Source: Anaerolentibacter hominis (GTDB taxonomy: Bacteria > Bacillota > Clostridia > Lachnospirales > Lachnospiraceae). Taken from it: a DNA stretch of 64,000 nucleotides. Positions 23,705 through 63,107 of this stretch are shown here, in pieces. The notes under the pieces were generated by a model that was given only the letters and a program-made list of their open reading frames with translations, was not told the origin of the DNA and ran no database searches. The stretch spans positions 95,560 to 159,559 of the forward strand of contig NZ_JAWDIX010000004.1 of NCBI RefSeq assembly GCF_032380675.1. The letters run 5' to 3'. Made by a program: the position numbers and the translations under genes. Position 1 is the stretch's first letter. Each line of letters starts with the position of its first letter.

Positions 23705-24064
23705 ATGGATATTAAGCTGTTTGATTCTGAATTAAAAGTTATGTCTGTGCTCTGGAATGAGGGAGACACTACCGCCAAGCATATTTCTGATGTGCTGAAA
23801 GAGGAGACAGGCTGGAATATGAATACGACCTATACACTGATTAAAAGATGCATTAAGAAGGGGGCAATCAGCCGCAGCGAGCCTAATTTCATGTGTCATG
23901 CGCTGGTGCCCAAGGAAGCGGTACAGGAGGCGGAGACGAATGAACTGATTAACAAGGTGTATGATGGATCTGCTGATAAATTATTTGCGGCGCTGCTGGG
24001 GAGAAAGAAACTCTCACCGGAACAGATTGAGAAACTGAAACAGATTGTTGACGGTCTGGAATAA
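23705..24064 (+). CDS. BlaI/MecI/CopY-family transcriptional repressor
   Basis: 119-aa winged-helix penicillinase-repressor fold (N-terminal LxxxELxVMxxLW motif). Confidence 0.85.
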   Translation: MDIKLFDSELKVMSVLWNEGDTTAKHISDVLKEETGWNMNTTYTLIKRCIKKGAISRSEPNFMCHALVPKEAVQEAETNELINKVYDGSADKLFAALLGRKKLSPEQIEKLKQIVDGLE

Positions 24065-24118
24065 GAGGACAAGGCTGGTTAAAACGGACAGCGTAAATGC
24101 TTCGGAATGGAGGGAAAT

Positions 24119-25651
24119 ATGAATCTTCTGCAAATGAGTATTGCCGGCGGGGTGATGATACTGGCGGTTGCCGTGATACGTGCGCTGTTCCTTCATAAGC
24201 TGCCAAAGAAGACCTTTGTTATTTTATGGGGTATTGTACTGCTGCGGCTGATGATTCCCGTTTCACTGCCGTCAACTTTCAGTATTTATTCGTTTACCCC
24301 GGCGATGGATGCGGTAAAGGATACCCCGGCGGAGAGATACCTGCCGATTTTTCAGGAGGCAGAGACCGTTTCGCAGCCGGAGCAGCCGATCCCGGAGCGG
24401 AATCGATTTCCTCTTTGGACATTTATTTGGGCGGCCGGAGCCGTTCTCAGCGCCTTGTTCTTTGTCTTGTCTTATATCCGGTGCCGGCTTGATTTCCGCA
24501 CTTCTCTTCCGGTCAATCATGAATATGCGGACAGATGGCTGAAAGAGCATTCTCTCCGCAGAATGATTTCCATCCGGCAGTCCGGCTGCGTAGCAGCTCC
24601 GCTTACTTACGGGATCATCCATCCGGTTATTCTGATGCCGAAATCAACGGATTGGACAGATACCGGGCAGATGGAATATGTTCTGGCACATGAATATACC
24701 CATATCAGGAAAATGGATGGGATAAGGAAACTTGCGCTTACAGCGGCTCTGTGCGTTCATTGGTTCAATCCGGTGGTCTGGCTTATGTATTATCTGGCTA
24801 ACAGGGATATTGAACTGTGCTGTGATGAGGCCGTGGTCCGGATGTTTGGACAGGGAACCAGATCTGCTTATGCCTTTACACTGATCAGCATGGAAGAAAA
24901 GAAAAGCAGTATTCAGCCGCTTTGCAGTAATTTCAGCAGGCCTGCCATTAAAGAAAGGATAACCGCAATTATGAAAATAAAAAAGAAATCATTGTCAGCC
25001 GTTTTGGCTGCAGCCGGACTGATCATTGCAGTATCTGCAGTGTTTGCCACGTCCGCTGTCGCTGCAAATGAACCTGTTTTACAGCTGGGGCAGAAGATGA
25101 GCCAGCCGCTTTCCCATATCGGCAAATGGAAACCTGGTTCAAAGGCGGAGACGGAATCCGGGCAGATTTTTTCTGTTGACAGCGTAGAACTTCGCAGCTA
25201 TGAACCTGGATATCCTTATCTTCATCCGGTCTATACCAACAGAACAGATCAAACTGTAACAAAGATTCAATATAGTATGCTGGCCTTTGATAAGGATGGC
25301 CAGCCGCTGAAAATCAAATGGTTCCCGATGGATTCATCCTTCCGGATTGCCTATAGCTATATGACAGACGAGGAACTGAACCTAAAGCCGGGCAAGACCT
25401 ATGATGTGAGGGGAGGCTGGTCTCTGTATCCGAGCGGGGACTGGGCGGAACTGACTAGGGAGGAAAAGAAGGAGGAAGGATCTGCCAGAGTGGTTTACTC
25501 TATGTACTGCATCAGTCAGATTACATTTAAGGACGGAAGCAAGTGGGTGAATCCGGACTTTGAGAACTGGAAAGATACTTATACGGGGAAAAAAGCAGAA
25601 GTTTCATTTCTGCAAAATTATTACCCCAGGGAATATGCGGTAACACAGTAA
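24119..25651 (+). CDS. BlaR1-like M56-family membrane metalloprotease/signal transducer with a non-canonical C-terminal domain
   Basis: 4-TM N-terminus with HEYTHI (HExxH) zinc motif; C-terminal roughly 220 aa lack the class-D beta-lactamase-like SxxK sensor motifs. Confidence 0.75.
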   Translation: MNLLQMSIAGGVMILAVAVIRALFLHKLPKKTFVILWGIVLLRLMIPVSLPSTFSIYSFTPAMDAVKDTPAERYLPIFQEAETVSQPEQPIPERNRFPLWTFIWAAGAVLSALFFVLSYIRCRLDFRTSLPVNHEYADRWLKEHSLRRMISIRQSGCVAAPLTYGIIHPVILMPKSTDWTDTGQMEYVLAHEYTHIRKMDGIRKLALTAALCVHWFNPVVWLMYYLANRDIELCCDEAVVRMFGQGTRSAYAFTLISMEEKKSSIQPLCSNFSRPAIKERITAIMKIKKKSLSAVLAAAGLIIAVSAVFATSAVAANEPVLQLGQKMSQPLSHIGKWKPGSKAETESGQIFSVDSVELRSYEPGYPYLHPVYTNRTDQTVTKIQYSMLAFDKDGQPLKIKWFPMDSSFRIAYSYMTDEELNLKPGKTYDVRGGWSLYPSGDWAELTREEKKEEGSARVVYSMYCISQITFKDGSKWVNPDFENWKDTYTGKKAEVSFLQNYYPREYAVTQ

Positions 25652-26811: not shown

Positions 26812-26976
26812 AACAGCACCTCATTTCTCTTCCTGATATCAATTTATTCTTTTGTCATTATAGATGAAAAGAAAAAAGAGTACAACCATATTCTTTGGCA
26901 CCTTGTACTTATTTTTGCATATTATAAAGCAGAAGGACAAAAATCCTTTCGACCAGGAAAACGTAGGAGGTACCAT

Positions 26977-27153
26977 ATGGAACTGTGGAAACAGGATGAT
27001 GATGCGACTCAGCTGGTGGTAGAAGATAACACCATCTATGAAATAGATTTGAACTGTCTGTGGTGCAGAGAGCACCAGAAAGCAAGGGAAGAAGCTATGT
27101 GCGGCTGTCCGGCGGCCGATACGGATCGGCATGCGGGGCGTGTCCCGAATTAG
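26977..27153 (+). CDS. 58-aa Cys-containing micro-protein (CxxC...CxC), hypothetical
   Basis: not in ORF track (under 60 aa); ATG preceded by AGGAGG SD at 6-7 nt; MELWKQDDDATQLVVEDNTIYEIDLNCLWCREHQKAREEAMCGCPAADTDRHAGRVPN; convergent with the Cys/Gly-rich gene. Confidence 0.45.
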   Translation: MELWKQDDDATQLVVEDNTIYEIDLNCLWCREHQKAREEAMCGCPAADTDRHAGRVPN

Positions 27154-27201
27154 AGCAGAAATACGACACCGGCTTACGCCGGTGCCGTAAATTCCAATTT
27201 C

Positions 27202-27414
27202 TTAGCAGAAGCCGTTGCCGCCACAGCAGCAGAGGATAAGTATAATCCAGATGATGGAACCGCAGTCATTGCCGCCACAGCCGGAATTGCCACAACCAAA
27301 ACCGTTGCCGCCGCAGCAGCACAGAAGGATCAGAATCAGCCAAATACAGCTGTTGCCCCCTTCACATCCACATCCACATCCGCTGCCGCAGTTTGTTGCT
27401 GCTAAATCACTCAT
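27202..27414 (-). CDS. 70-aa Cys/Gly-rich tandem-repeat micro-protein (candidate RiPP-like precursor or YjcZ-like small protein)
   Basis: ATG with AGGAGG SD at 7 nt; about 15 Cys and 18 Gly in 70 aa; two repeats of the form GNxC-(I)IW(L)ILIL-CCCGGNGF(G)C; repeat also visible at DNA level. Confidence 0.6.
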   Translation of the reverse strand: MSDLAATNCGSGCGCGCEGGNSCIWLILILLCCCGGNGFGCGNSGCGGNDCGSIIWIILILCCCGGNGFC

Positions 27415-27509
27415 GTTAAATCCTCCTAATTTTCATTACACTTCATCATATGTACCTTGGCTTGACTAATTTCGCAAAATATCAGAAGAAAATAAAAACT
27501 TCTCTGAAA

Positions 27510-27552
27510 TACAGAAAAAGATGCCGGAAAACATGGATTTTCCGGCATCTTT
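27510..27552 (-). terminator. rho-independent terminator after the MATE gene (minus strand)
   Basis: AAAGATGCCGGAAAA-catgga-TTTTCCGGCATCTTT with T-run on the minus strand. Confidence 0.75.
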
Positions 27553-27586
27553 AATAGGAATGATTTAAAATGAACTGCGGATCTCC

Positions 27587-28966
27587 TTAAACCTGCGACG
27601 GCTGGGAGAGCGGTTTGATCATCTGGTGAAAAATACGTTTCAGGAAGAGCAGGCTGAGCAGAAGGGATACCACTTCGGCGATCGGGAAGCACCACCATAT
27701 CATGTCAAGCCCCAAGGTTTGAGCAAACACCCATGCAACAGGCAGGAGCACAAAAAGCTGTCTGCACAGGGACATGATGAGACTTAAGACGCCGTTGCCC
27801 AGAGCCTGAAAGACAGAACTGAGCACAATGGAGACCCCGGCCAGGACAAAATGGACACTGATAATCCTCAGAGCCGTGATCCCGATGGTCATCATTTCTT
27901 CGGAAGCCTTGAAAAATCCCAGAAGCACATCGGGCAATAACTGAAACACTGCCAAACCAACGACCATAATAGCAGTAGCACCGATGACACTGTATTTGAT
28001 CGTGTCGGTAATCCTTTTTTTGTTTTTCGCACCATAATTATAAGCGACAATAGGAACCATACCATTATTTAATCCGAATACCGGCATGAAGATAAAGCTC
28101 TGCAGCTTAAAATATACGCCGAATACAGATACGGCAGTTGTGGAAAACATCAAGAGGATACGATTCATTCCATAAGTCATAACCGACCCTATTGACTGCA
28201 TAATAATAGAAGGAAGTCCCACTGAGTAAATTTGCCGTATCGTACGGCCGTGGGGCCTGAATCCCTTCAGAGACAGGGAGATCTCTTTATTCTTGGTAAC
28301 ATTAAACATCAGGGAAAGTGACATTCCCAGAAGCTGGCCTATGACAGTGGCCAAAGCCGCACCCGCCGCTCCCATGCGGGGAAATCCGAAGAAACCGAAT
28401 ATAAGGATAGGGTCCAGAATAATATTCGTAATCGCTCCGGCTCCCTGGGTCAGCATATTATAAAAAGTTTTACCGGTGGACTGCATCAGACGTTCACTGG
28501 TGATCTGCATAAAAATACCAAAGGATGCGATCGTACAGATGGACAGATAGTCGACACCGTGACGTATAATCTCCACATCACTGGTCTGGGACTGAAAATA
28601 CATCCTGACAAAGAAGATGCCAAATATGGCAAATGCGATATAGCTGAGCACCGCTAAAAAGAGTCCGTTCACAGCCGCCAGGTTTGCCTCTTTCTGCTTT
28701 TTCTCTCCCAGGCTTCTGGACAGGAGTGCATTGACGCCCACTGCGGTTCCCACGCCGACAGCTATCATTAAATTTTGTATGGGGAAAGATAAAGATACTG
28801 CCGTGAGGGCGTCTTCACTGAAATGTGAGACAAAGACTGAATCCACTACGTTATACATTGCCTGTACCAGCATCGAGATTATCATCGGTGCGGCCATTGT
28901 TACCAGCAGCTTTTTAACAGGCATAATGCCCATTTTGTTTTCTTGTTGTACGGTGTTCCCCGCCAT
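27587..28966 (-). CDS. MATE-family efflux transporter
   Basis: 12-TM, 459 aa, typical MATE N-terminus (MPVKKLLVTMAAPMIISMLVQAMYNVVDSVFV). Confidence 0.85.
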   Translation of the reverse strand: MAGNTVQQENKMGIMPVKKLLVTMAAPMIISMLVQAMYNVVDSVFVSHFSEDALTAVSLSFPIQNLMIAVGVGTAVGVNALLSRSLGEKKQKEANLAAVNGLFLAVLSYIAFAIFGIFFVRMYFQSQTSDVEIIRHGVDYLSICTIASFGIFMQITSERLMQSTGKTFYNMLTQGAGAITNIILDPILIFGFFGFPRMGAAGAALATVIGQLLGMSLSLMFNVTKNKEISLSLKGFRPHGRTIRQIYSVGLPSIIMQSIGSVMTYGMNRILLMFSTTAVSVFGVYFKLQSFIFMPVFGLNNGMVPIVAYNYGAKNKKRITDTIKYSVIGATAIMVVGLAVFQLLPDVLLGFFKASEEMMTIGITALRIISVHFVLAGVSIVLSSVFQALGNGVLSLIMSLCRQLFVLLPVAWVFAQTLGLDMIWWCFPIAEVVSLLLSLLFLKRIFHQMIKPLSQPSQV

Positions 28967-34580: not shown

Positions 34581-35486
34581 ATGAGTTGGTTTCAGGAGGT
34601 GGGCCTTGATGAGGTTCACCGAAGGGGCGTTTATGGAGCCGGAGTCGGAGTTGCCGTTCTGGATACGGGGCTCTATCCCCATCCGGATTTTGGGAATCGG
34701 ATCACGGCTTTTTACGATGCATTGAAGAAAAAAGACAGCCCCTATGATGATGCATCCCACGGAACACATGTGGCGGGACTGATCGGCGGAGACGGTTCAG
34801 CCTCCGGCGGCAGATATATCGGAGCGGCTCCGGCCTGCTCCCTGATCGGCGTCAAGGTATTAAATCACCAGGGAAACGGTATGATACCCGACGTATTAAT
34901 CGGACTCAACTGGATATTGGAAAACAAAACCAAATATAATATCCGGATATTAAATATTTCAGTAGGAACTAAAGGAGATACACTGGCAGACGAAGATTCC
35001 GTGCTGGTAAAGGCAGTAGAAGAGGTGTGGAACGCTGGAATTGTAGTGGTGGCCGCAGCGGCTAATAACGGTCCGCTGCCCGGTTCAATCGGCTCTCCGG
35101 GCATCAGCCGGAAGATTATAACCGTAGGAGCTTCCAACGACTATGTTCCCATCGAGTCCAGAGGAAGGAAATTGAAAAATTACTCCGGAAGAGGACCCAC
35201 GGCGTCCTGCATCCGAAAACCGGATATTGTGGCGCCGGGAGCAAAGATGATCTCCTGCAATGTACCCAATTCCGCGAATCGGAATCTCTATGCGGTAAAG
35301 AGCGGAACCTCTATGGCCACGCCTGTGGTTTCGGGGGCAATTGCCCTTCTTTTGTCCCGGTATCCGGAGATGACAACCAGAGAAGTGAAAATTCGGCTAA
35401 AAGAAAGCGCGGTCGATCTGGGACTTCCAGGAAACCAGCAGGGCTGGGGACAGCTTGACGCAGGACGGCTGGTGTTCGGCTCCTGA
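34581..35486 (+). CDS. subtilisin-like S8 serine peptidase without recognizable signal peptide
   Basis: catalytic triad contexts VAVLDTGL, HGTHVAG, GTSMATP; no N-terminal signal sequence. Confidence 0.8.
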   Translation: MSWFQEVGLDEVHRRGVYGAGVGVAVLDTGLYPHPDFGNRITAFYDALKKKDSPYDDASHGTHVAGLIGGDGSASGGRYIGAAPACSLIGVKVLNHQGNGMIPDVLIGLNWILENKTKYNIRILNISVGTKGDTLADEDSVLVKAVEEVWNAGIVVVAAAANNGPLPGSIGSPGISRKIITVGASNDYVPIESRGRKLKNYSGRGPTASCIRKPDIVAPGAKMISCNVPNSANRNLYAVKSGTSMATPVVSGAIALLLSRYPEMTTREVKIRLKESAVDLGLPGNQQGWGQLDAGRLVFGS

Positions 35487-50322: not shown

Positions 50323-52086
50323 ATGAGAGTTTCAGAAAAAGCAGACCGCAGCAGGCTGATTGCGGCAGCGATGCAGAAAATTCCATGTGATTTAACCGTT
50401 GAAAACGTCAAGCTGGTTAACGTGATTACCGGAGAGATTTATCCGGCCAGTGTGGATGTACTGGATGGAACCATTGTAAGAGTCAGAGAAGAGGGAGAGA
50501 CTACTGAAGTCCCTTCCAGGACTGTTTATGATGGTAAGGGCGCTTATTTAATGCCCGGATTTATTGACGCTCATATGCATGTGGAAAGCACAATGATGAT
50601 ACCGGAGAATTTCGCAAGGGTAGCGGTTCCCTGGGGCACAACTACGGTGTGTACAGATCCTCATGAAATCGGCAATGTCATGGGAATTCCGGGTGTGAAA
50701 TTTATGCTGGAGAGCGGCCGTCAGGCGGCGCTTCGTCATCTGGTTCTGGCTCCTTCCTGTGTGCCTGCTGTTCCGGGGCTTGAGAGCACCGGTGCCGATT
50801 TCTTTGCAAAAGAAGTGGGTGAACTGCTGGATATGGACGACGTGGTTGGTATCGCGGAAATTATGGATTATGTTGGTGTATATAATGATACGGACCGTAT
50901 GCATACCATTATCGACGAAGGAATAAAGAGAAATCTTCTGCTTCAGGGACATGCTCCCAGCGTGACAGGCAAAGAGCTGGCAGCGTACCGGATCGGCGGA
51001 CCTGTAACGGATCACGAGAGCAACACGGCAGAGGAAATCAATGAGAAGCTGCGCATGGGTATTCATGTTAACCTGCGTGCAAGTTCGATTGTGGATAATC
51101 TGGGAACTCTTCTGGGCGGCCTGAAAAACCACAAATTCTATGATTTCGTATCGGTCTGCACCGATGATGTCCATGCGAAGGATATCCTGGAGAAGGGGCA
51201 TCTTAACAGTGTGATCGGCAAGGCAATCAAGAAAGGTATTGAACCTCTGGATATTATCAAGATGGCAACGCTGAACGCGGCAAGAGAGTATGGTTTTGAT
51301 GATCTGGGAGCAATTGCGCCTGGCTATCTTGCGGATATGCAGCTGGTGGATGAGCTGGACGGCCGCCGTCCGAACGCGGTATTTATCAAAGGACAGCTGG
51401 TTGCTGAGAACGGAAACTACATAGCAAAAGATCCTGCTGAGAAAAAATATGATTTCCCGAATACGGTCAATATGGAGCAGCTTCAGACAGCGGATGATTT
51501 CCGCCTGAAAGCACCGGAAGGCTGCGGGGATAAAGTAAAGACCCTGATTATGGAGCCGGTGACAAAGGGTATTGTAATGAAGGGTTCCATGGAAGAACTG
51601 CCTGTTGTCAATGGCTATGTTACTCTGGGAGATCATGATGACCTGCAGTTTGTGTGCATAGCAAATCGTTATGGTACCGGAACCAAGAGTATAGTTGTAA
51701 TGAGAAATTATGGGCTGAAAGAAGGGGCGGTTGCTTCTACCGTATCCCATGACAGCCATAACTTTACGGTTATATATAAGGACGCTGAGGATGCCCTTGC
51801 GGCGGCTCAGGAACTGAAACGTACCGGCGGCGGTATGTGCGCAGTAAAGGAAGGCAAGATCTTATATACCCTTCCTCTGCCGGTAGCGGGGCTTATGTCC
51901 ACCCTTCCCTGTGAGCCTCTGGCAAAGGAGATTGAGACGATGGAGAAGGCAATGCTGTCTCTGTGTCCGGACGAGTCCTCTATTCTGATGATTGCCTGCC
52001 TTGCCCTGCCGGTAAGACCAGGCCTGATTATGACGGATATAGGCATTGTTGACGGTCTGACCCAGGAATTTGTCAGCCAGTTTTAA
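50323..52086 (+). CDS. ade: adenine deaminase (amidohydrolase superfamily), paralog 1
   Basis: 587 aa; metal-binding GFIDAHMHVESTMM and downstream His/Asp ligands typical of adenine deaminase. Confidence 0.85.
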   Translation: MRVSEKADRSRLIAAAMQKIPCDLTVENVKLVNVITGEIYPASVDVLDGTIVRVREEGETTEVPSRTVYDGKGAYLMPGFIDAHMHVESTMMIPENFARVAVPWGTTTVCTDPHEIGNVMGIPGVKFMLESGRQAALRHLVLAPSCVPAVPGLESTGADFFAKEVGELLDMDDVVGIAEIMDYVGVYNDTDRMHTIIDEGIKRNLLLQGHAPSVTGKELAAYRIGGPVTDHESNTAEEINEKLRMGIHVNLRASSIVDNLGTLLGGLKNHKFYDFVSVCTDDVHAKDILEKGHLNSVIGKAIKKGIEPLDIIKMATLNAAREYGFDDLGAIAPGYLADMQLVDELDGRRPNAVFIKGQLVAENGNYIAKDPAEKKYDFPNTVNMEQLQTADDFRLKAPEGCGDKVKTLIMEPVTKGIVMKGSMEELPVVNGYVTLGDHDDLQFVCIANRYGTGTKSIVVMRNYGLKEGAVASTVSHDSHNFTVIYKDAEDALAAAQELKRTGGGMCAVKEGKILYTLPLPVAGLMSTLPCEPLAKEIETMEKAMLSLCPDESSILMIACLALPVRPGLIMTDIGIVDGLTQEFVSQF

Positions 52087-52160: not shown

Positions 52161-53936
52161 ATGAGAGTAATTGAAAATAGAGACCGAAGCCGTCTGATTG
52201 CGGCGGCTATGCAGAAAATACCCTGTGATCTGACCATTGAAAACGTAAAGTTTGTGAATGTGATTACGGGTGAAATTTATCCCGCCAGCGTGGATATCCT
52301 GGACGGCATTGTCATCCGGGTGCGCACAGAAGGGGAAATGACGAAGAAGCCCAGTAACGAGATTTATGACGGCAAAGGAAATTATCTGGTGCCGGGATTT
52401 ATTGATATTCATATGCATATTGAGAGTACAATGATGATACCGGAAAACTTTGGCCGGGCTGCAATTCTGTGCGGAACGACAAGTGTGTTTGTTGATCCGC
52501 ACGAGATTGGCAATGTAATGGGTATTCCCGGTGTAAGATTTATGGTGGAGAATGCAAGGAAATCTCCGGTCCGCCAGTTCAATTTGGCTCCATCCTGTGT
52601 GCCTTCTGTTCCCGGAGTAGAAGGGGCGGGGGCCGAATTTAATGCGGGAGAGATCGCTGATTTGCTGGGTATGGATGGAGTTTACGGCATTGCGGAGGTA
52701 ATGGATTTTGTCAATGTGGTGCAGGATGCGCCTAGAATGCATGATATCGTGGAAGAAGGGCTTAAGAGAGACTGTCTGATCCAGGGCCACGCGCCGGGCG
52801 TGCTGGGCAAAGAACTGGCGGCTTATATACTGGCCGGGCCTACCGATAACCACAGTCTGAGCACGGCGGAGGAAGCCTGCCAGGATCTGCGGGCGGGGCT
52901 CTACGCCAACTTCCAGGAAAGCTCCCTCTCTGCCAGAAGAATGCCGGAACTTTTAAAGGGGATCAAAAACCACAGATGGCACGATCATGTAACGCTCTGT
53001 ACGGATGATGTCCATGCCAAGGACCTTATGGAGACAGGTCATGTCAACAGACTGATCAAGTCTGTACTTATGGAGGGAATTGATCCTGTAGAAGCAATCC
53101 GCTGGGCTACCTATAATTCGGGCCGGGATTCCGGCTTTAGGGATCTGGGAGCAATTGCGCCAGGGTATGTCGCGGATATCCAGCTGCTAGGGGAGCTGGA
53201 CGGAAGAAATCCGGAGGCAGTCTTTGTGGCAGGAAAACTGGCTGCCGAGCATGGAGTACTTGTCGGCGAATACAAAGAAGACGAAGGTTCCGCGTTCCAG
53301 CCGGAAAATACGGTGCATATAGACTACATTACAGGGCCTGACATGTTCCGCCTGAAAGCGCCGGTAGAAAATGGCACCGTACGGGCAGCTGTGATGGACT
53401 ATGATTATAACGGCACCGGGAAAACAGAAGTTGTGTATGAGGAAGTGCCTGTCCGGGACGGATATGTAGATATCAGCGGCAAAGATGAACTGCACTATAT
53501 GAGTGTATGGAACCGCCATAAAAGTACGGATCACACCATTACTCTCTGCAGGAACTTCGGACTTTTAAAGGGAGCTATGGGCAGCACAATAGCCCATGAC
53601 TGCCATAATCTGGTCTTGGCTTACCGGGACAGGGAGGATGCGCATCTGGCCGCCAGAGCTCTGGCCGAATGTGGAGGAGGTATCTGCGCGGTACATCAGG
53701 GTGAGGTGAAGGGTCTGCTGAAGCTTCCGGTAGCCGGCCTGATGAGTACGCTTCCATGCGAGAAACTGGTTCCGGAGATCGGGGCGGCGGAGGCAGCGGT
53801 AGATCAGCTGTGCGACCGAAAGGGAAAATTGATGAAGGCGGCCATTCTTTCCCTGGCCTGTATCCCGATGGCGGTTATTACAGACAGGGGATTAGTCGAT
53901 GGTCGGACCCAGAAATTCTATGAGTTGTTTCAATAA
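52161..53936 (+). CDS. ade: adenine deaminase paralog 2
   Basis: 591 aa; same domain organisation; first about 50 aa nearly identical to paralog 1 at protein level but diverged at synonymous DNA sites. Confidence 0.85.
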   Translation: MRVIENRDRSRLIAAAMQKIPCDLTIENVKFVNVITGEIYPASVDILDGIVIRVRTEGEMTKKPSNEIYDGKGNYLVPGFIDIHMHIESTMMIPENFGRAAILCGTTSVFVDPHEIGNVMGIPGVRFMVENARKSPVRQFNLAPSCVPSVPGVEGAGAEFNAGEIADLLGMDGVYGIAEVMDFVNVVQDAPRMHDIVEEGLKRDCLIQGHAPGVLGKELAAYILAGPTDNHSLSTAEEACQDLRAGLYANFQESSLSARRMPELLKGIKNHRWHDHVTLCTDDVHAKDLMETGHVNRLIKSVLMEGIDPVEAIRWATYNSGRDSGFRDLGAIAPGYVADIQLLGELDGRNPEAVFVAGKLAAEHGVLVGEYKEDEGSAFQPENTVHIDYITGPDMFRLKAPVENGTVRAAVMDYDYNGTGKTEVVYEEVPVRDGYVDISGKDELHYMSVWNRHKSTDHTITLCRNFGLLKGAMGSTIAHDCHNLVLAYRDREDAHLAARALAECGGGICAVHQGEVKGLLKLPVAGLMSTLPCEKLVPEIGAAEAAVDQLCDRKGKLMKAAILSLACIPMAVITDRGLVDGRTQKFYELFQ

Positions 53937-59924: not shown

Positions 59925-60869
59925 ATGATTAAAATTTTATTGGATGCGGATACTGGAGTGGACGATTCGATTGCATTATTGTATGCGCTGAAAAATCCTG
60001 ACGTTCAGCTGGTGGGAGTGACAACCGTACTGGGCAATACCGACCCGGTGCAGGCTGCGAAAAACAGTCTGGCGCTGATAGCTCTTGCGAAGCCGGATTA
60101 TGAGGTGCCGGTGGCAATCGGCGCAGGGCAGACGCTAAAAGGTGTTGTAACAAAGTCAGATACCCACGTACACGGCAAAAATGGCATCGGAGATGCGGAG
60201 CTGCCCCCGGCTGAGCAGAAACCGATTGAGCGGGGTGGTGTGGACTTCATGATCGAACAGGCCAGAAAGTATGCCGGAGAGCTGGTGATTGTCGCAACAG
60301 GCCGCCTTACTAATCTGGCACTGGCGATTCAGAAGGATGCGTCCTTTGTTAAAAATGTGAAGAAAGCAGTGATTATGGGAGGAACTGTATTTGCTCCGGG
60401 TAATGTAAGCCCGGTAGCGGAAGCCAATATATACGGTGATCCGGAAGCTGCTGATCTGGTTCTCACATCCGGTATGGATGTGACAATCGTGGGATTAGAT
60501 GTCACGAAGAAGACAATACTTACTTATGATGATGTACTTAAACTGGAGAGGCACTGCCGGGAAGAAAATCAGCCCATTGTCCGGTATTTAAAAGACTGCC
60601 TGGGTTTTTATATGAGTTTTTATACAGATACTGTAAATACCCTGGAGAGCTGCCCCATGCATGACCCGCTGGCTATGCTGGTTGCGGTGAACCCTGCGCT
60701 TGTGACGACACGGAAGTGGAAGGCAAGAGTGGAGTGTACGGACGGCCTGTGCAGAGGCATGATTGTCACTGACCGGAGGGAGCATACCTTTAAGGCGGAG
60801 TTTGTGGAATTCTGCATAGAAGTGGATGGGGATAAAGCAGTGGCCGAACTGCTGGCCGCATTTCTTTAA
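59925..60869 (+). CDS. nucleoside hydrolase (IUNH family)
   Basis: N-terminal Ca-binding DTGVDD motif (LLDADTGVDDSIAL), 314 aa. Confidence 0.85.
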   Translation: MIKILLDADTGVDDSIALLYALKNPDVQLVGVTTVLGNTDPVQAAKNSLALIALAKPDYEVPVAIGAGQTLKGVVTKSDTHVHGKNGIGDAELPPAEQKPIERGGVDFMIEQARKYAGELVIVATGRLTNLALAIQKDASFVKNVKKAVIMGGTVFAPGNVSPVAEANIYGDPEAADLVLTSGMDVTIVGLDVTKKTILTYDDVLKLERHCREENQPIVRYLKDCLGFYMSFYTDTVNTLESCPMHDPLAMLVAVNPALVTTRKWKARVECTDGLCRGMIVTDRREHTFKAEFVEFCIEVDGDKAVAELLAAFL

Positions 60870-62222: not shown

Positions 62223-63107
62223 ATGAAAATTTTAAATCTGGGATCTGTCAACTTTGATAATGTATATTCTGTTGACCATATGGTACAGCCGGGGGAGACA
62301 CTTTCCTCCCTGCAGGTGGAAGTATTTCCTGGCGGCAAGGGACTGAACCAGTCGATTTCACTGGCCAGGGCCGGAGCGGAGGTTTATCATGCCTGCATTA
62401 TGGGCGAGGACGGCGGTCCGCTGTTAAGCGTATTTACGGAAAATGGCGTGGATACCAGCCTGATTCAGACGGCAGCGGTTCGGCAGGGACATTCTGTTAT
62501 TCAGGTGGATAAAAACGGGCAGAACTGTATTATACTGTTCGGCGGCAGCAATACAAGCCTGACCAAAGACTATATTGACCAGGTGATTGGACGGTTTGAG
62601 GAGGGAGACCTGATTCTTCTGCAGAATGAGGTGAACCTGATGGATTACATTATTGACAGGGCCTATGAAAAAGGACTTGTGATTGCCTTAAATCCTTCGC
62701 CCTATAACAGTGCTATGGAGGCCTGTGATCTGTCTAAGGTGACCTATTTCCTTATGAATGAGATCGAAGGCGGACAGATAACCGGCAAAACAGAGCCGGC
62801 GGAAATTCTGGATGCAGTTCTGGCGATGTACCCGGCGGCACGCATTGTGTTAACACTGGGCAAGGACGGCGTGGTTTATAAGGATAAAGACGGATATTAT
62901 GAACAGAGCAGTTTCCTCGTTAAGGCAGTGGATACCACCGCGGCAGGCGATACCTTTACCGGTTATTTTCTGGGAGCCGTCTTAAAGGGTGAGGATGTGC
63001 CTACCGCTCTGAGAAGAAGCTGTAAGGCCTCCGCAATCGCAGTTACCAGGGAAGGGGCGGCAAGTTCGATTCCCACCTTTGAAGAGGTTGAGAAGGCCGA
63101 GTTTTAA
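62223..63107 (+). CDS. rbsK: ribokinase (PfkB family)
   Basis: GGKGLNQS and DTTAAGDTFTG motifs. Confidence 0.8.
   Translation: MKILNLGSVNFDNVYSVDHMVQPGETLSSLQVEVFPGGKGLNQSISLARAGAEVYHACIMGEDGGPLLSVFTENGVDTSLIQTAAVRQGHSVIQVDKNGQNCIILFGGSNTSLTKDYIDQVIGRFEEGDLILLQNEVNLMDYIIDRAYEKGLVIALNPSPYNSAMEACDLSKVTYFLMNEIEGGQITGKTEPAEILDAVLAMYPAARIVLTLGKDGVVYKDKDGYYEQSSFLVKAVDTTAAGDTFTGYFLGAVLKGEDVPTALRRSCKASAIAVTREGAASSIPTFEEVEKAEF

Follow-up and report, generated by a model that had tools for sequence, protein, structure and literature searches.

In a 64,000-nucleotide (nt) stretch of the genome of Anaerolentibacter hominis, hereafter the window, an open reading frame (ORF) of 70 amino acids (aa), unusually rich in Cys and Gly, is a genuine protein-coding gene of a widely conserved and uncharacterised family of small proteins specific to Lachnospiraceae. 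Its partner on the opposite strand, encoding 58 aa, is likewise a conserved microprotein gene. The promoter footprint of the family suggests that the 70-aa gene would be transcribed late in sporulation by the sigma-K RNA polymerase. We hold with middling confidence that its product (the 70-mer) is a disulfide-prone component of the late-sporulation spore envelope, functionally analogous to CdeM, CotY or YjcZ. The gene and the signals that bound it are as follows:

27202..27414 (stop included), minus strand: the 70-aa Cys/Gly-rich microprotein gene, recognised by its ORF and its homologues
27422..27427, minus strand: Shine-Dalgarno sequence AGGAGG of the 70-aa gene, 7 nt upstream of the ATG
27162..27189, between the convergent stop codons: hairpin with a 12-bp stem, a likely bidirectional terminator (folding free energy -26.9 kcal/mol, z = -4.86)
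27517..27552, minus strand: terminator of the upstream MATE transporter gene, a 16-bp stem followed by a T tract

The 70-mer begins with MSDLAATNCG and contains 18 Gly and 15 Cys, together 33 of its 70 residues (47%), with Cys alone making up 21%. Its two hydrophobic cores, IWLILILLCCC (residues 24-34) and IIWIILILCCC (residues 54-64), both contain Trp and each is followed by CCCGGNGF. The internal duplication can be read in the DNA itself as a pair of 39-nt segments, 77% identical and offset by 90 nt. The stop codons of the two convergent genes are 48 nt apart, and none of the shuffled sequences folded as well as the hairpin that lies between them. Since terminators flank the 70-aa gene on both sides, it forms a self-contained, monocistronic unit. 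The initial annotation, made from the letters of the window, had described most of this architecture, and it was borne out in each of these respects: the sequence as quoted and the well-spaced AGGAGG, a composition nearly half Cys and Gly, the two Trp-containing repeats visible in the DNA, the convergent 58-aa ORF with a good ribosome-binding site (RBS) beyond a shared hairpin, and the MATE gene directly upstream on the same strand with a terminator of its own.

A period-6 repeat reported by Tandem Repeats Finder at 27363-27381 was rejected as a separate feature, as it corresponds to the GGATGT codons that encode (CG)n. A scan of the locus against Rfam returned only chance matches below the gathering thresholds (His_leader, E = 0.23; L20_leader, E = 0.009). 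Antisense to the 70-aa gene lies an 84-aa Pro/Gln-rich ORF (27215-27469, plus strand), and antisense ORFs of at least 90 aa occur in 24 related loci, where gene finders could call them instead of the true gene. The exact 70-aa product was absent from a collection of 15 billion proteins, in which 7 of 12 other A. hominis products looked up were present (AroC counted once, with its M start). The 58-aa product and six further products of the window are exact A. hominis RefSeq proteins. WP accessions follow the gene order here, and the five numbers free at this point (ending in 358 to 362) would suffice for four large ORFs and the 70-aa gene, which RefSeq may thus have annotated.

Homology searches revealed the breadth of the family. 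A word-indexed search retrieved 215 homologues at E ≤ 0.01, nearly all 66-96 aa long and from Lachnospiraceae (Blautia, Roseburia, Dorea, Eubacterium, Hespellia and others), and a profile search without an index, run over 1.84 billion representatives, recovered 436 clusters (50% identity) at E ≤ 1e-3 and 125 at E ≤ 1e-10. Oversized database entries proved to be read-through junk or versions with three repeats, with no domain fusions among them. A scan of one reference genome per species located at least 212 genomic loci, again almost all in Lachnospiraceae. We fetched 80 of these, which together with the window gave the sample of 81 loci (77-78 non-redundant upstream regions) on which the counts below are based. 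Two pair-bearing loci carry other taxonomic labels, L017 (record title Prevotella sp. P5-108) and L068 (Oscillospiraceae); both are short contigs of 6-7 kb, for which mis-binning of Lachnospiraceae DNA is a likelier explanation than a true occurrence outside the family.

The alignment shows an invariant start, M-S-D-L-(A/S)-A-T-N-C-G, followed by two cores of the form (I/L)W(I/L)I(I/L)LL, each leading into CC(C)GGNGF, with variable arms of Cys, Gly, Asn and Asp between them. Because the N-terminal motif belonged to the pattern used in the genome scan, its invariance among the scanned loci is partly circular. Among the index-free matches, an N-terminus of the MSDL type was present in 106 of 129, and most of the others were close variants (MSDI, MSDV or MSEL). 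Across the 81 loci, codons 2-9 drift synonymously while the encoded residues stay constant, a GGAGG-type RBS core is found in 79, and exactly two hydrophobic cores are found in 80. Family composition is dominated by Gly (22.6%), Cys (16.8%; median 16.9%), Leu (11.8%), Asn (10.9%) and Ile (8.7%), with Lys and Arg together at about 1%, so that the product is acidic with a net charge of -3 or -4. With Cys counted, the cores run to 7-13 residues (median 11), and Kyte-Doolittle windows of 19 residues peak at 1.9-2.0. An AlphaFold2 (AF2) model of the 70-mer placed two short helices at the cores (residues 24-33 and 51-63) with a predicted local distance difference test score (pLDDT) of 52.

The region upstream of the gene carries the second line of evidence. 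Within 110 nt of the ATG the family conserves a single footprint, gaAAC-N16/17-CATAnnAT(a)-N4/5-TGTAA(a)...GGAGG...ATG, the remainder being unconserved. In the window its elements are:

27469..27474, minus strand: -35 region of the 70-aa gene, cgaaAT in the window where the family consensus is gaAAC
27445..27452, minus strand: -10 box CATATGAT of a mother-cell (sigma-K/sigma-E type) sporulation promoter, a perfect CATAnnAT
27436..27440, minus strand: TGTAA box, 4-5 nt downstream of the -10 box and perfect in the window

A position matrix built from 78 non-redundant upstream regions placed CATAnnAT(a) 33-59 nt before the ATG, mostly at 38-43 nt, with about 0 bits in neighbouring columns. The element lies no more than 75 nt from the ATG in 71 of 77 non-redundant loci, compared with 52 of 777 other ORFs in the same loci (6.7%), and the full AC-N16/17-CATAnnAT motif was recovered in 54 of 77 loci against 13 of 777 background ORFs (1.7%). 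An AC at a spacer of 15-17 nt was present in 65 of 77 loci, and the ATA typical of sigma-E in only 4. The published consensus for sigma-K combines a -35 AC with a -10 CATATAAT, while sigma-E promoters have ATA at -35 (PMC3789822). The footprint AC-N15-17-CATAnnAT matches the sigma-K consensus, and the family therefore has a sigma-K-type late mother-cell promoter. The TGTAA box is an additional element; it takes the form [T/c][G/a]TAA in all 78 non-redundant loci, with an invariant A at +16, whereas promoters of the 58-aa family lack it. Transcription probably starts within this box, which may represent the start site or initial transcribed sequence, or else the site of a regulator.

The convergent partner has a comparable set of signals:

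26977..27153, plus strand: the 58-aa microprotein gene (WP_343210357.1, a hypothetical protein of A. hominis), with the motif LVVEDNTIYEIDLNC
26965-26970, plus strand: RBS AGGAGG of the 58-aa gene, 6 nt before the ATG
26900..26926, plus strand: full promoter of sigma-K type for the 58-aa gene, AC-N16-CATATTATA, 50 nt before the ATG

A search with the single 58-aa sequence retrieved only itself. When the loci were searched with tblastn, 60 of 81 showed the motif L(I/V)I(D/E)(G/D)N.(V/I)YE(I/L)D..C convergently, shortly past the end of the microprotein gene, in ORFs of 33-74 aa (with one exception of 108 aa) and with stop-to-stop gaps of 19-245 nt. The pairing of the two genes is thus conserved in related genomes, and the 58-aa ORF is a real, second conserved microprotein gene. 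Its promoter at 26900-26926 is the sole plus-strand match to AC-N16/17-CATAnnAT in the window. Across the family CATAnnAT occurs in 28 of 60 loci and the full motif in 17 of 60, to be compared with the background frequencies of 6.7% and 1.7% given above. A resemblance to sigma-70 promoters ahead of the gene, at 9 of 12 positions, was rejected, given that shuffled sequences yield as much.

A profile search extended the 58-aa family to at least 3151 proteins of 34-100 aa, all labelled 'hypothetical' and lacking any Pfam domain, and scans of 32 members against Pfam and NCBIfam gave no meaningful family. Its members would combine an acidic beta-hairpin motif with a helix and, in most cases, a basic tail. 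Residues Y21, E22, D24 and C27 are invariant, as are L13 and N18 in the larger set. Only part of the CxxC...CxC cysteine pattern described in the initial annotation holds beyond the window: CxxC occurs in a subset of the family, whereas CxC is not conserved and the first Cys (C27) is the only invariant one. The AF2 model of the 58-mer predicts a beta-hairpin (residues 11-24) followed by a helix (25-42), with pLDDT of about 80 over residues 11-40 and 68 overall. Foldseek matched this model to nothing in the PDB at E < 1, and a profile search of the family against PDB sequences likewise returned nothing.

The 70-mer resembles several known families and apparently belongs to none of them. No Pfam or NCBIfam model matched the window protein or any of 31 aligned members at E ≤ 10, in libraries that should include the YjcZ sporulation family (models TIGR01732 and PF09680) and families of precursors of ribosomally synthesised and post-translationally modified peptides (RiPPs); note that the bias filters of HMMER may penalise low-complexity sequences of this kind. 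A profile search against PDB sequences found no relative, and no paper describing the bacterial family was found when the literature was searched by NCBI product name, by N-terminal peptide and for Cys-rich coat proteins of Lachnospiraceae. The family is thus already present in databases, where it is misnamed and, as judged by the hidden Markov model (HMM) and literature searches, uncharacterised.

YjcZ proteins are about 50 aa long and have a single hydrophobic core. The initial annotation had offered, as one option, a novel small Cys-rich and perhaps membrane-associated protein recalling YjcZ, and the sigma-K-type promoter conserved in the family speaks for this general direction. Membership in YjcZ was rejected with the failure of its HMMs to match any of the 31 members. 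The likeness itself stands, since both are tiny proteins with a Gly-rich flank and a hydrophobic core, and B. subtilis yjcZ has been assigned to the sigma-K regulon (PMC517825). The sigma-K-type footprint of the 70-mer family (degenerate at -35 in the window) would be in line with similar expression. Unlike YjcZ of Bacillaceae, however, the 70-mer family is confined to Lachnospiraceae, has two cores in nearly all loci, is longer and far richer in Cys, and begins with an invariant N-terminus of its own.

Cys-rich proteins have a morphogenetic role in the outermost spore layers of Bacillus species. Clostridial sigma-K targets are mostly coat and exosporium proteins (PMC3789822), and among them CdeC and CdeM are Cys-rich exosporium morphogenetic proteins of C. 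difficile, with monocistronic, sigma-K-driven and lineage-specific genes, cdeM lying between housekeeping genes (PMC6101409). The 70-mer shares with CdeM and CdeC, and with CotY, CotZ and ExsY, its richness in Cys, its restriction to one lineage, a monocistronic setting among housekeeping genes and a sigma-K-type promoter; its Cys content in the window is high enough for disulfides, and by analogy with CdeM, CdeC and CotY it may take part in the disulfide cross-linking of the outermost spore layer. CdeM even offers comparable Asn/Gly/Cys repeats, such as NGNNGGNNNNC and CNCCNCC (PMC6101409). The differences are nevertheless considerable: CdeM and CdeC are 161 and 405 aa long with about 9% Cys, compared with 66-96 aa and 17-21% Cys in the 70-mer family, and they lack its two strongly hydrophobic Trp-Ile/Leu cores. 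Both are also reported to be absent from Lachnospiraceae (PMC6101409).

Several members of the family bear the NCBI label 'chorion class high-cysteine HCB protein 13'. Chorion proteins harden the eggshell through disulfide cross-links, and Cys/Gly-rich arms around a hydrophobic centre are indeed reminiscent of silkmoth chorion Hc-B, a likeness that serves as a functional metaphor. Identity with the insect protein was rejected as a compositional mis-annotation, since no Pfam family matches and the range is bacterial and confined to Lachnospiraceae; the only paper found to use the chorion HCB name concerns Bombyx mori. Overall, the 70-mer lies outside the YjcZ, chorion and RiPP-precursor families, probably also outside CdeC/CdeM, and is best described as a new, Lachnospiraceae-specific version of the small or Cys-rich, sigma-K-dependent proteins of the spore envelope. 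The conserved convergent pairing of the two genes and the TGTAA box are new details.

Clustering of all ORFs from the 81 loci revealed the recurrent neighbours of the family. Two genes of the window bear on this comparison:

27587..28966, minus strand: MATE transporter (TIGR00797, E = 1.5e-60)
34581..35486, plus strand: 301-aa S8 family peptidase (WP_343210365.1), whose homologues adjoin the microprotein gene in 20 other loci

Of the 80 related loci only one has a MATE homologue, at a distance of about 6 kb, and the transporter is an unrelated neighbour outside the microprotein unit. The S8 peptidase genes, encoding about 300 aa, mostly adjoin the microprotein gene on its upstream side and point away from it. 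In the window about 7 kb separates the two genes and holds MATE, ATC-hydrolase-like, helix-turn-helix, unknown 225-aa, flotillin and IMPDH genes, and the link of the window peptidase to the 70-aa gene is tentative. In eight loci (L001, L028, L043, L052, L064, L067, L076 and L077) a Csp-like subtilase of about 600 aa lies directly upstream on the same strand, at about 4.1-5.9 kb (plus strand) in these loci, with about 60-100 nt between its end and the microprotein gene; its matches to the CspBA and CspC germination-protease models (E = 2e-71 and 5e-64) fall below trusted cut-offs. Two further neighbours make up a conserved operon-like unit that follows the gene on its own strand. The first, X (about 110-200 aa, motif LQMLK.A.PY), is downstream in 43 loci, and the second, Y (about 93 aa), follows X in 30 loci, for example at L013:4764-5412, L012:6560-7184 and L021:5356-6160. 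Sigma-E-like ATA-N15-18-CATAnnAT motifs precede X in 19 of 43 loci, compared with 0 of 16 for aroC, a gene that recurs in 16 loci including the window. Neither X nor Y belongs to a Pfam or NCBIfam family, and tblastn found no homologue of either in the window. Microprotein genes thus often sit among other spore-related genes.

These patterns are consistent with a spore-envelope role and suggest the following course of events. Late in sporulation, sigma-K polymerase would transcribe the 70-aa gene in the mother cell, giving a message with some 25 nt of leader and a strong RBS. The acidic product, almost devoid of Lys and Arg and with about 17-21% Cys, would be deposited on the developing spore, where its two short hydrophobic helices may drive self-association or adsorption to a surface or membrane. 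Its many Cys residues could then form intermolecular disulfides that harden or seal the outer layer once the environment becomes oxidising, and the invariant N-terminus may act as a targeting or processing tag. The co-inherited product of the 58-aa gene, a second microprotein of sigma-K type, probably acts in the same late-sporulation process.

A number of observations weigh against this interpretation. Dependence on sigma-K is read from a sequence motif, and in the window that motif is itself imperfect, with AAAT in place of AAAC at -35 (one of 12 variant loci among 77). The invariant TGTAA box might point to additional or different regulation. The spore-envelope destination is suggested by analogy, as the proposed coat or exosporium role draws on resemblance and not on homology, and no spo gene was seen among the roughly 40 larger ORFs of the window that were scanned. 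Furthermore, the confidence of the AF2 model of the 70-mer is too low for the model to be of use, and a Kyte-Doolittle maximum of 2.0 over 19 residues would be compatible with a membrane location.

The last point leads to the most serious rival, in which the 70-mer is a tiny YjcZ-like membrane protein forming a helical hairpin in the mother-cell or outer forespore membrane, with its Cys/Gly arms at the surface, and serves as an organiser or anchor. We consider this somewhat unlikely, though it remains a strong competitor. The two cores, their hydropathy and the helices modelled over them would suit such a hairpin, and so would the sigma-K-type footprint, which it shares with the spore-envelope reading, and the sigma-K dependence of B. 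subtilis yjcZ. However, cores with a median of 11 residues are too short for a canonical span, with hardly any Lys or Arg there is no positive-inside signal to set the topology, and 0 of 31 members match YjcZ or other membrane-protein models. Given 21% Cys, almost no basic residues and cores of this length, a self-associating shell component open to disulfide cross-linking fits better than a classical membrane protein.

A bolder version of the spore-envelope reading, which we judge unlikely, would make the two convergent microproteins building blocks of an unrecognised, Lachnospiraceae-specific outer spore layer, an oxygen-triggered disulfide shell resembling hydrophobin or chorion assemblies. 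The 70-mer would be tagged by its N-terminus and possibly trimmed by the linked S8 peptidase or Csp-like subtilase. It would then polymerise through its hydrophobic cores and disulfides into a self-sealing shell, shielding the spores of strict anaerobes while they pass from host to host. The 58-mer with its basic tail could act as assembly partner and the TGTAA box as the site of a dedicated late regulator.

Rather more doubtful is a metallothionein-like buffer, a thiol-rich protein in or on the spores of strict anaerobes whose CxC and CC clusters bind metal or act as antioxidant. Fifteen Cys in 70 residues, many of them in CxC and CCC motifs, and a late mother-cell promoter are compatible with such a function, and the hosts are obligate anaerobes whose spores presumably need to survive oxygen. 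Yet the Trp-Ile/Leu cores are conserved more strictly than individual Cys residues of the arms, which is atypical of metallothioneins, and no metal-binding family was matched.

The initial annotation had also offered a RiPP of the thiazole/oxazole-modified microcin (TOMM) type with the MATE protein as an associated exporter, and this proposal fared poorly. It would treat MSDLAATN as a leader and the Cys/Gly/Ser/Asn-rich remainder as a core that enzymes encoded elsewhere would heterocyclise or cross-link, with export by MATE or processing by the S8 peptidase. An invariant N-terminus followed by variable Cys/Gly/Asn-rich arms does recall precursors of TOMMs and linear azol(in)e-containing peptides (microcin B17, heterocycloanthracin), with their Gly/Cys/Ser/Asn-rich stretches after a conserved N-terminal segment, and an S8 peptidase gene adjoins the microprotein gene in 20 of 81 loci, with X and Y as two conserved neighbours without assigned function. 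However, the putative leader spans only some 8 residues, conservation within the putative core is highest in its hydrophobic helices, and the promoter is of sporulation type, not typical of a bacteriocin regulon. Models of nitrile hydratase leader peptide (NHLP), TOMM and heterocycloanthracin precursors matched none of the 31 members. Just as the initial annotation had reported the absence of cyclodehydratase, dehydrogenase and radical-SAM genes, no such gene or other modification family was present among the roughly 40 larger window ORFs scanned, and the neighbourhoods of the 80 related loci show no recurrent YcaO, LanM/B/C, radical-SAM or other modification family, MATE itself being adjacent in only one of them. 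We therefore consider a RiPP or bacteriocin precursor very improbable. That the ORF is no gene at all, merely a chance frame or an antisense shadow of the overlapping plus-strand ORFs described above, is effectively refuted, since promoter, RBS, start, stop and terminator all fit the minus-strand frame and are conserved, residues are maintained under synonymous drift, and the plus-strand ORF mirrors GGN/TGY-rich codons without conservation of its start site.

Other features of the window lie outside this locus. The region 23705-25651 (plus strand) encodes a 119-aa repressor of the BlaI/MecI/CopY type and, after it, a BlaR1 M56 peptidase-sensor that carries a DUF5780 domain at its C-terminus. 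Two adenine deaminase paralogues in tandem (50323-52086 and 52161-53936, plus strand; Amidohydro_1 and Adenine_deam_C), together with the nearby nucleoside hydrolase (59925-60869) and PfkB kinase (62223-63107), look like a cluster for purine and nucleoside salvage.

Among the spore-forming commensals of the human gut, Lachnospiraceae rank with the most abundant, and their spores mediate transmission from host to host and form the basis of spore-derived biotherapeutics. To our knowledge almost nothing has been established about the surface of these spores, from which the coat and exosporium proteins of C. difficile and Bacillus are largely absent. With the false lead of a RiPP and its MATE exporter removed, a gene pair that is easily overlooked or mislabelled, one member being named after an insect chorion protein and the other always 'hypothetical', comes into view. 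These family-wide microprotein genes with a textbook late mother-cell promoter provide testable candidate components of the Lachnospiraceae spore envelope, and the promoter could serve as a sigma-K reporter for the family.

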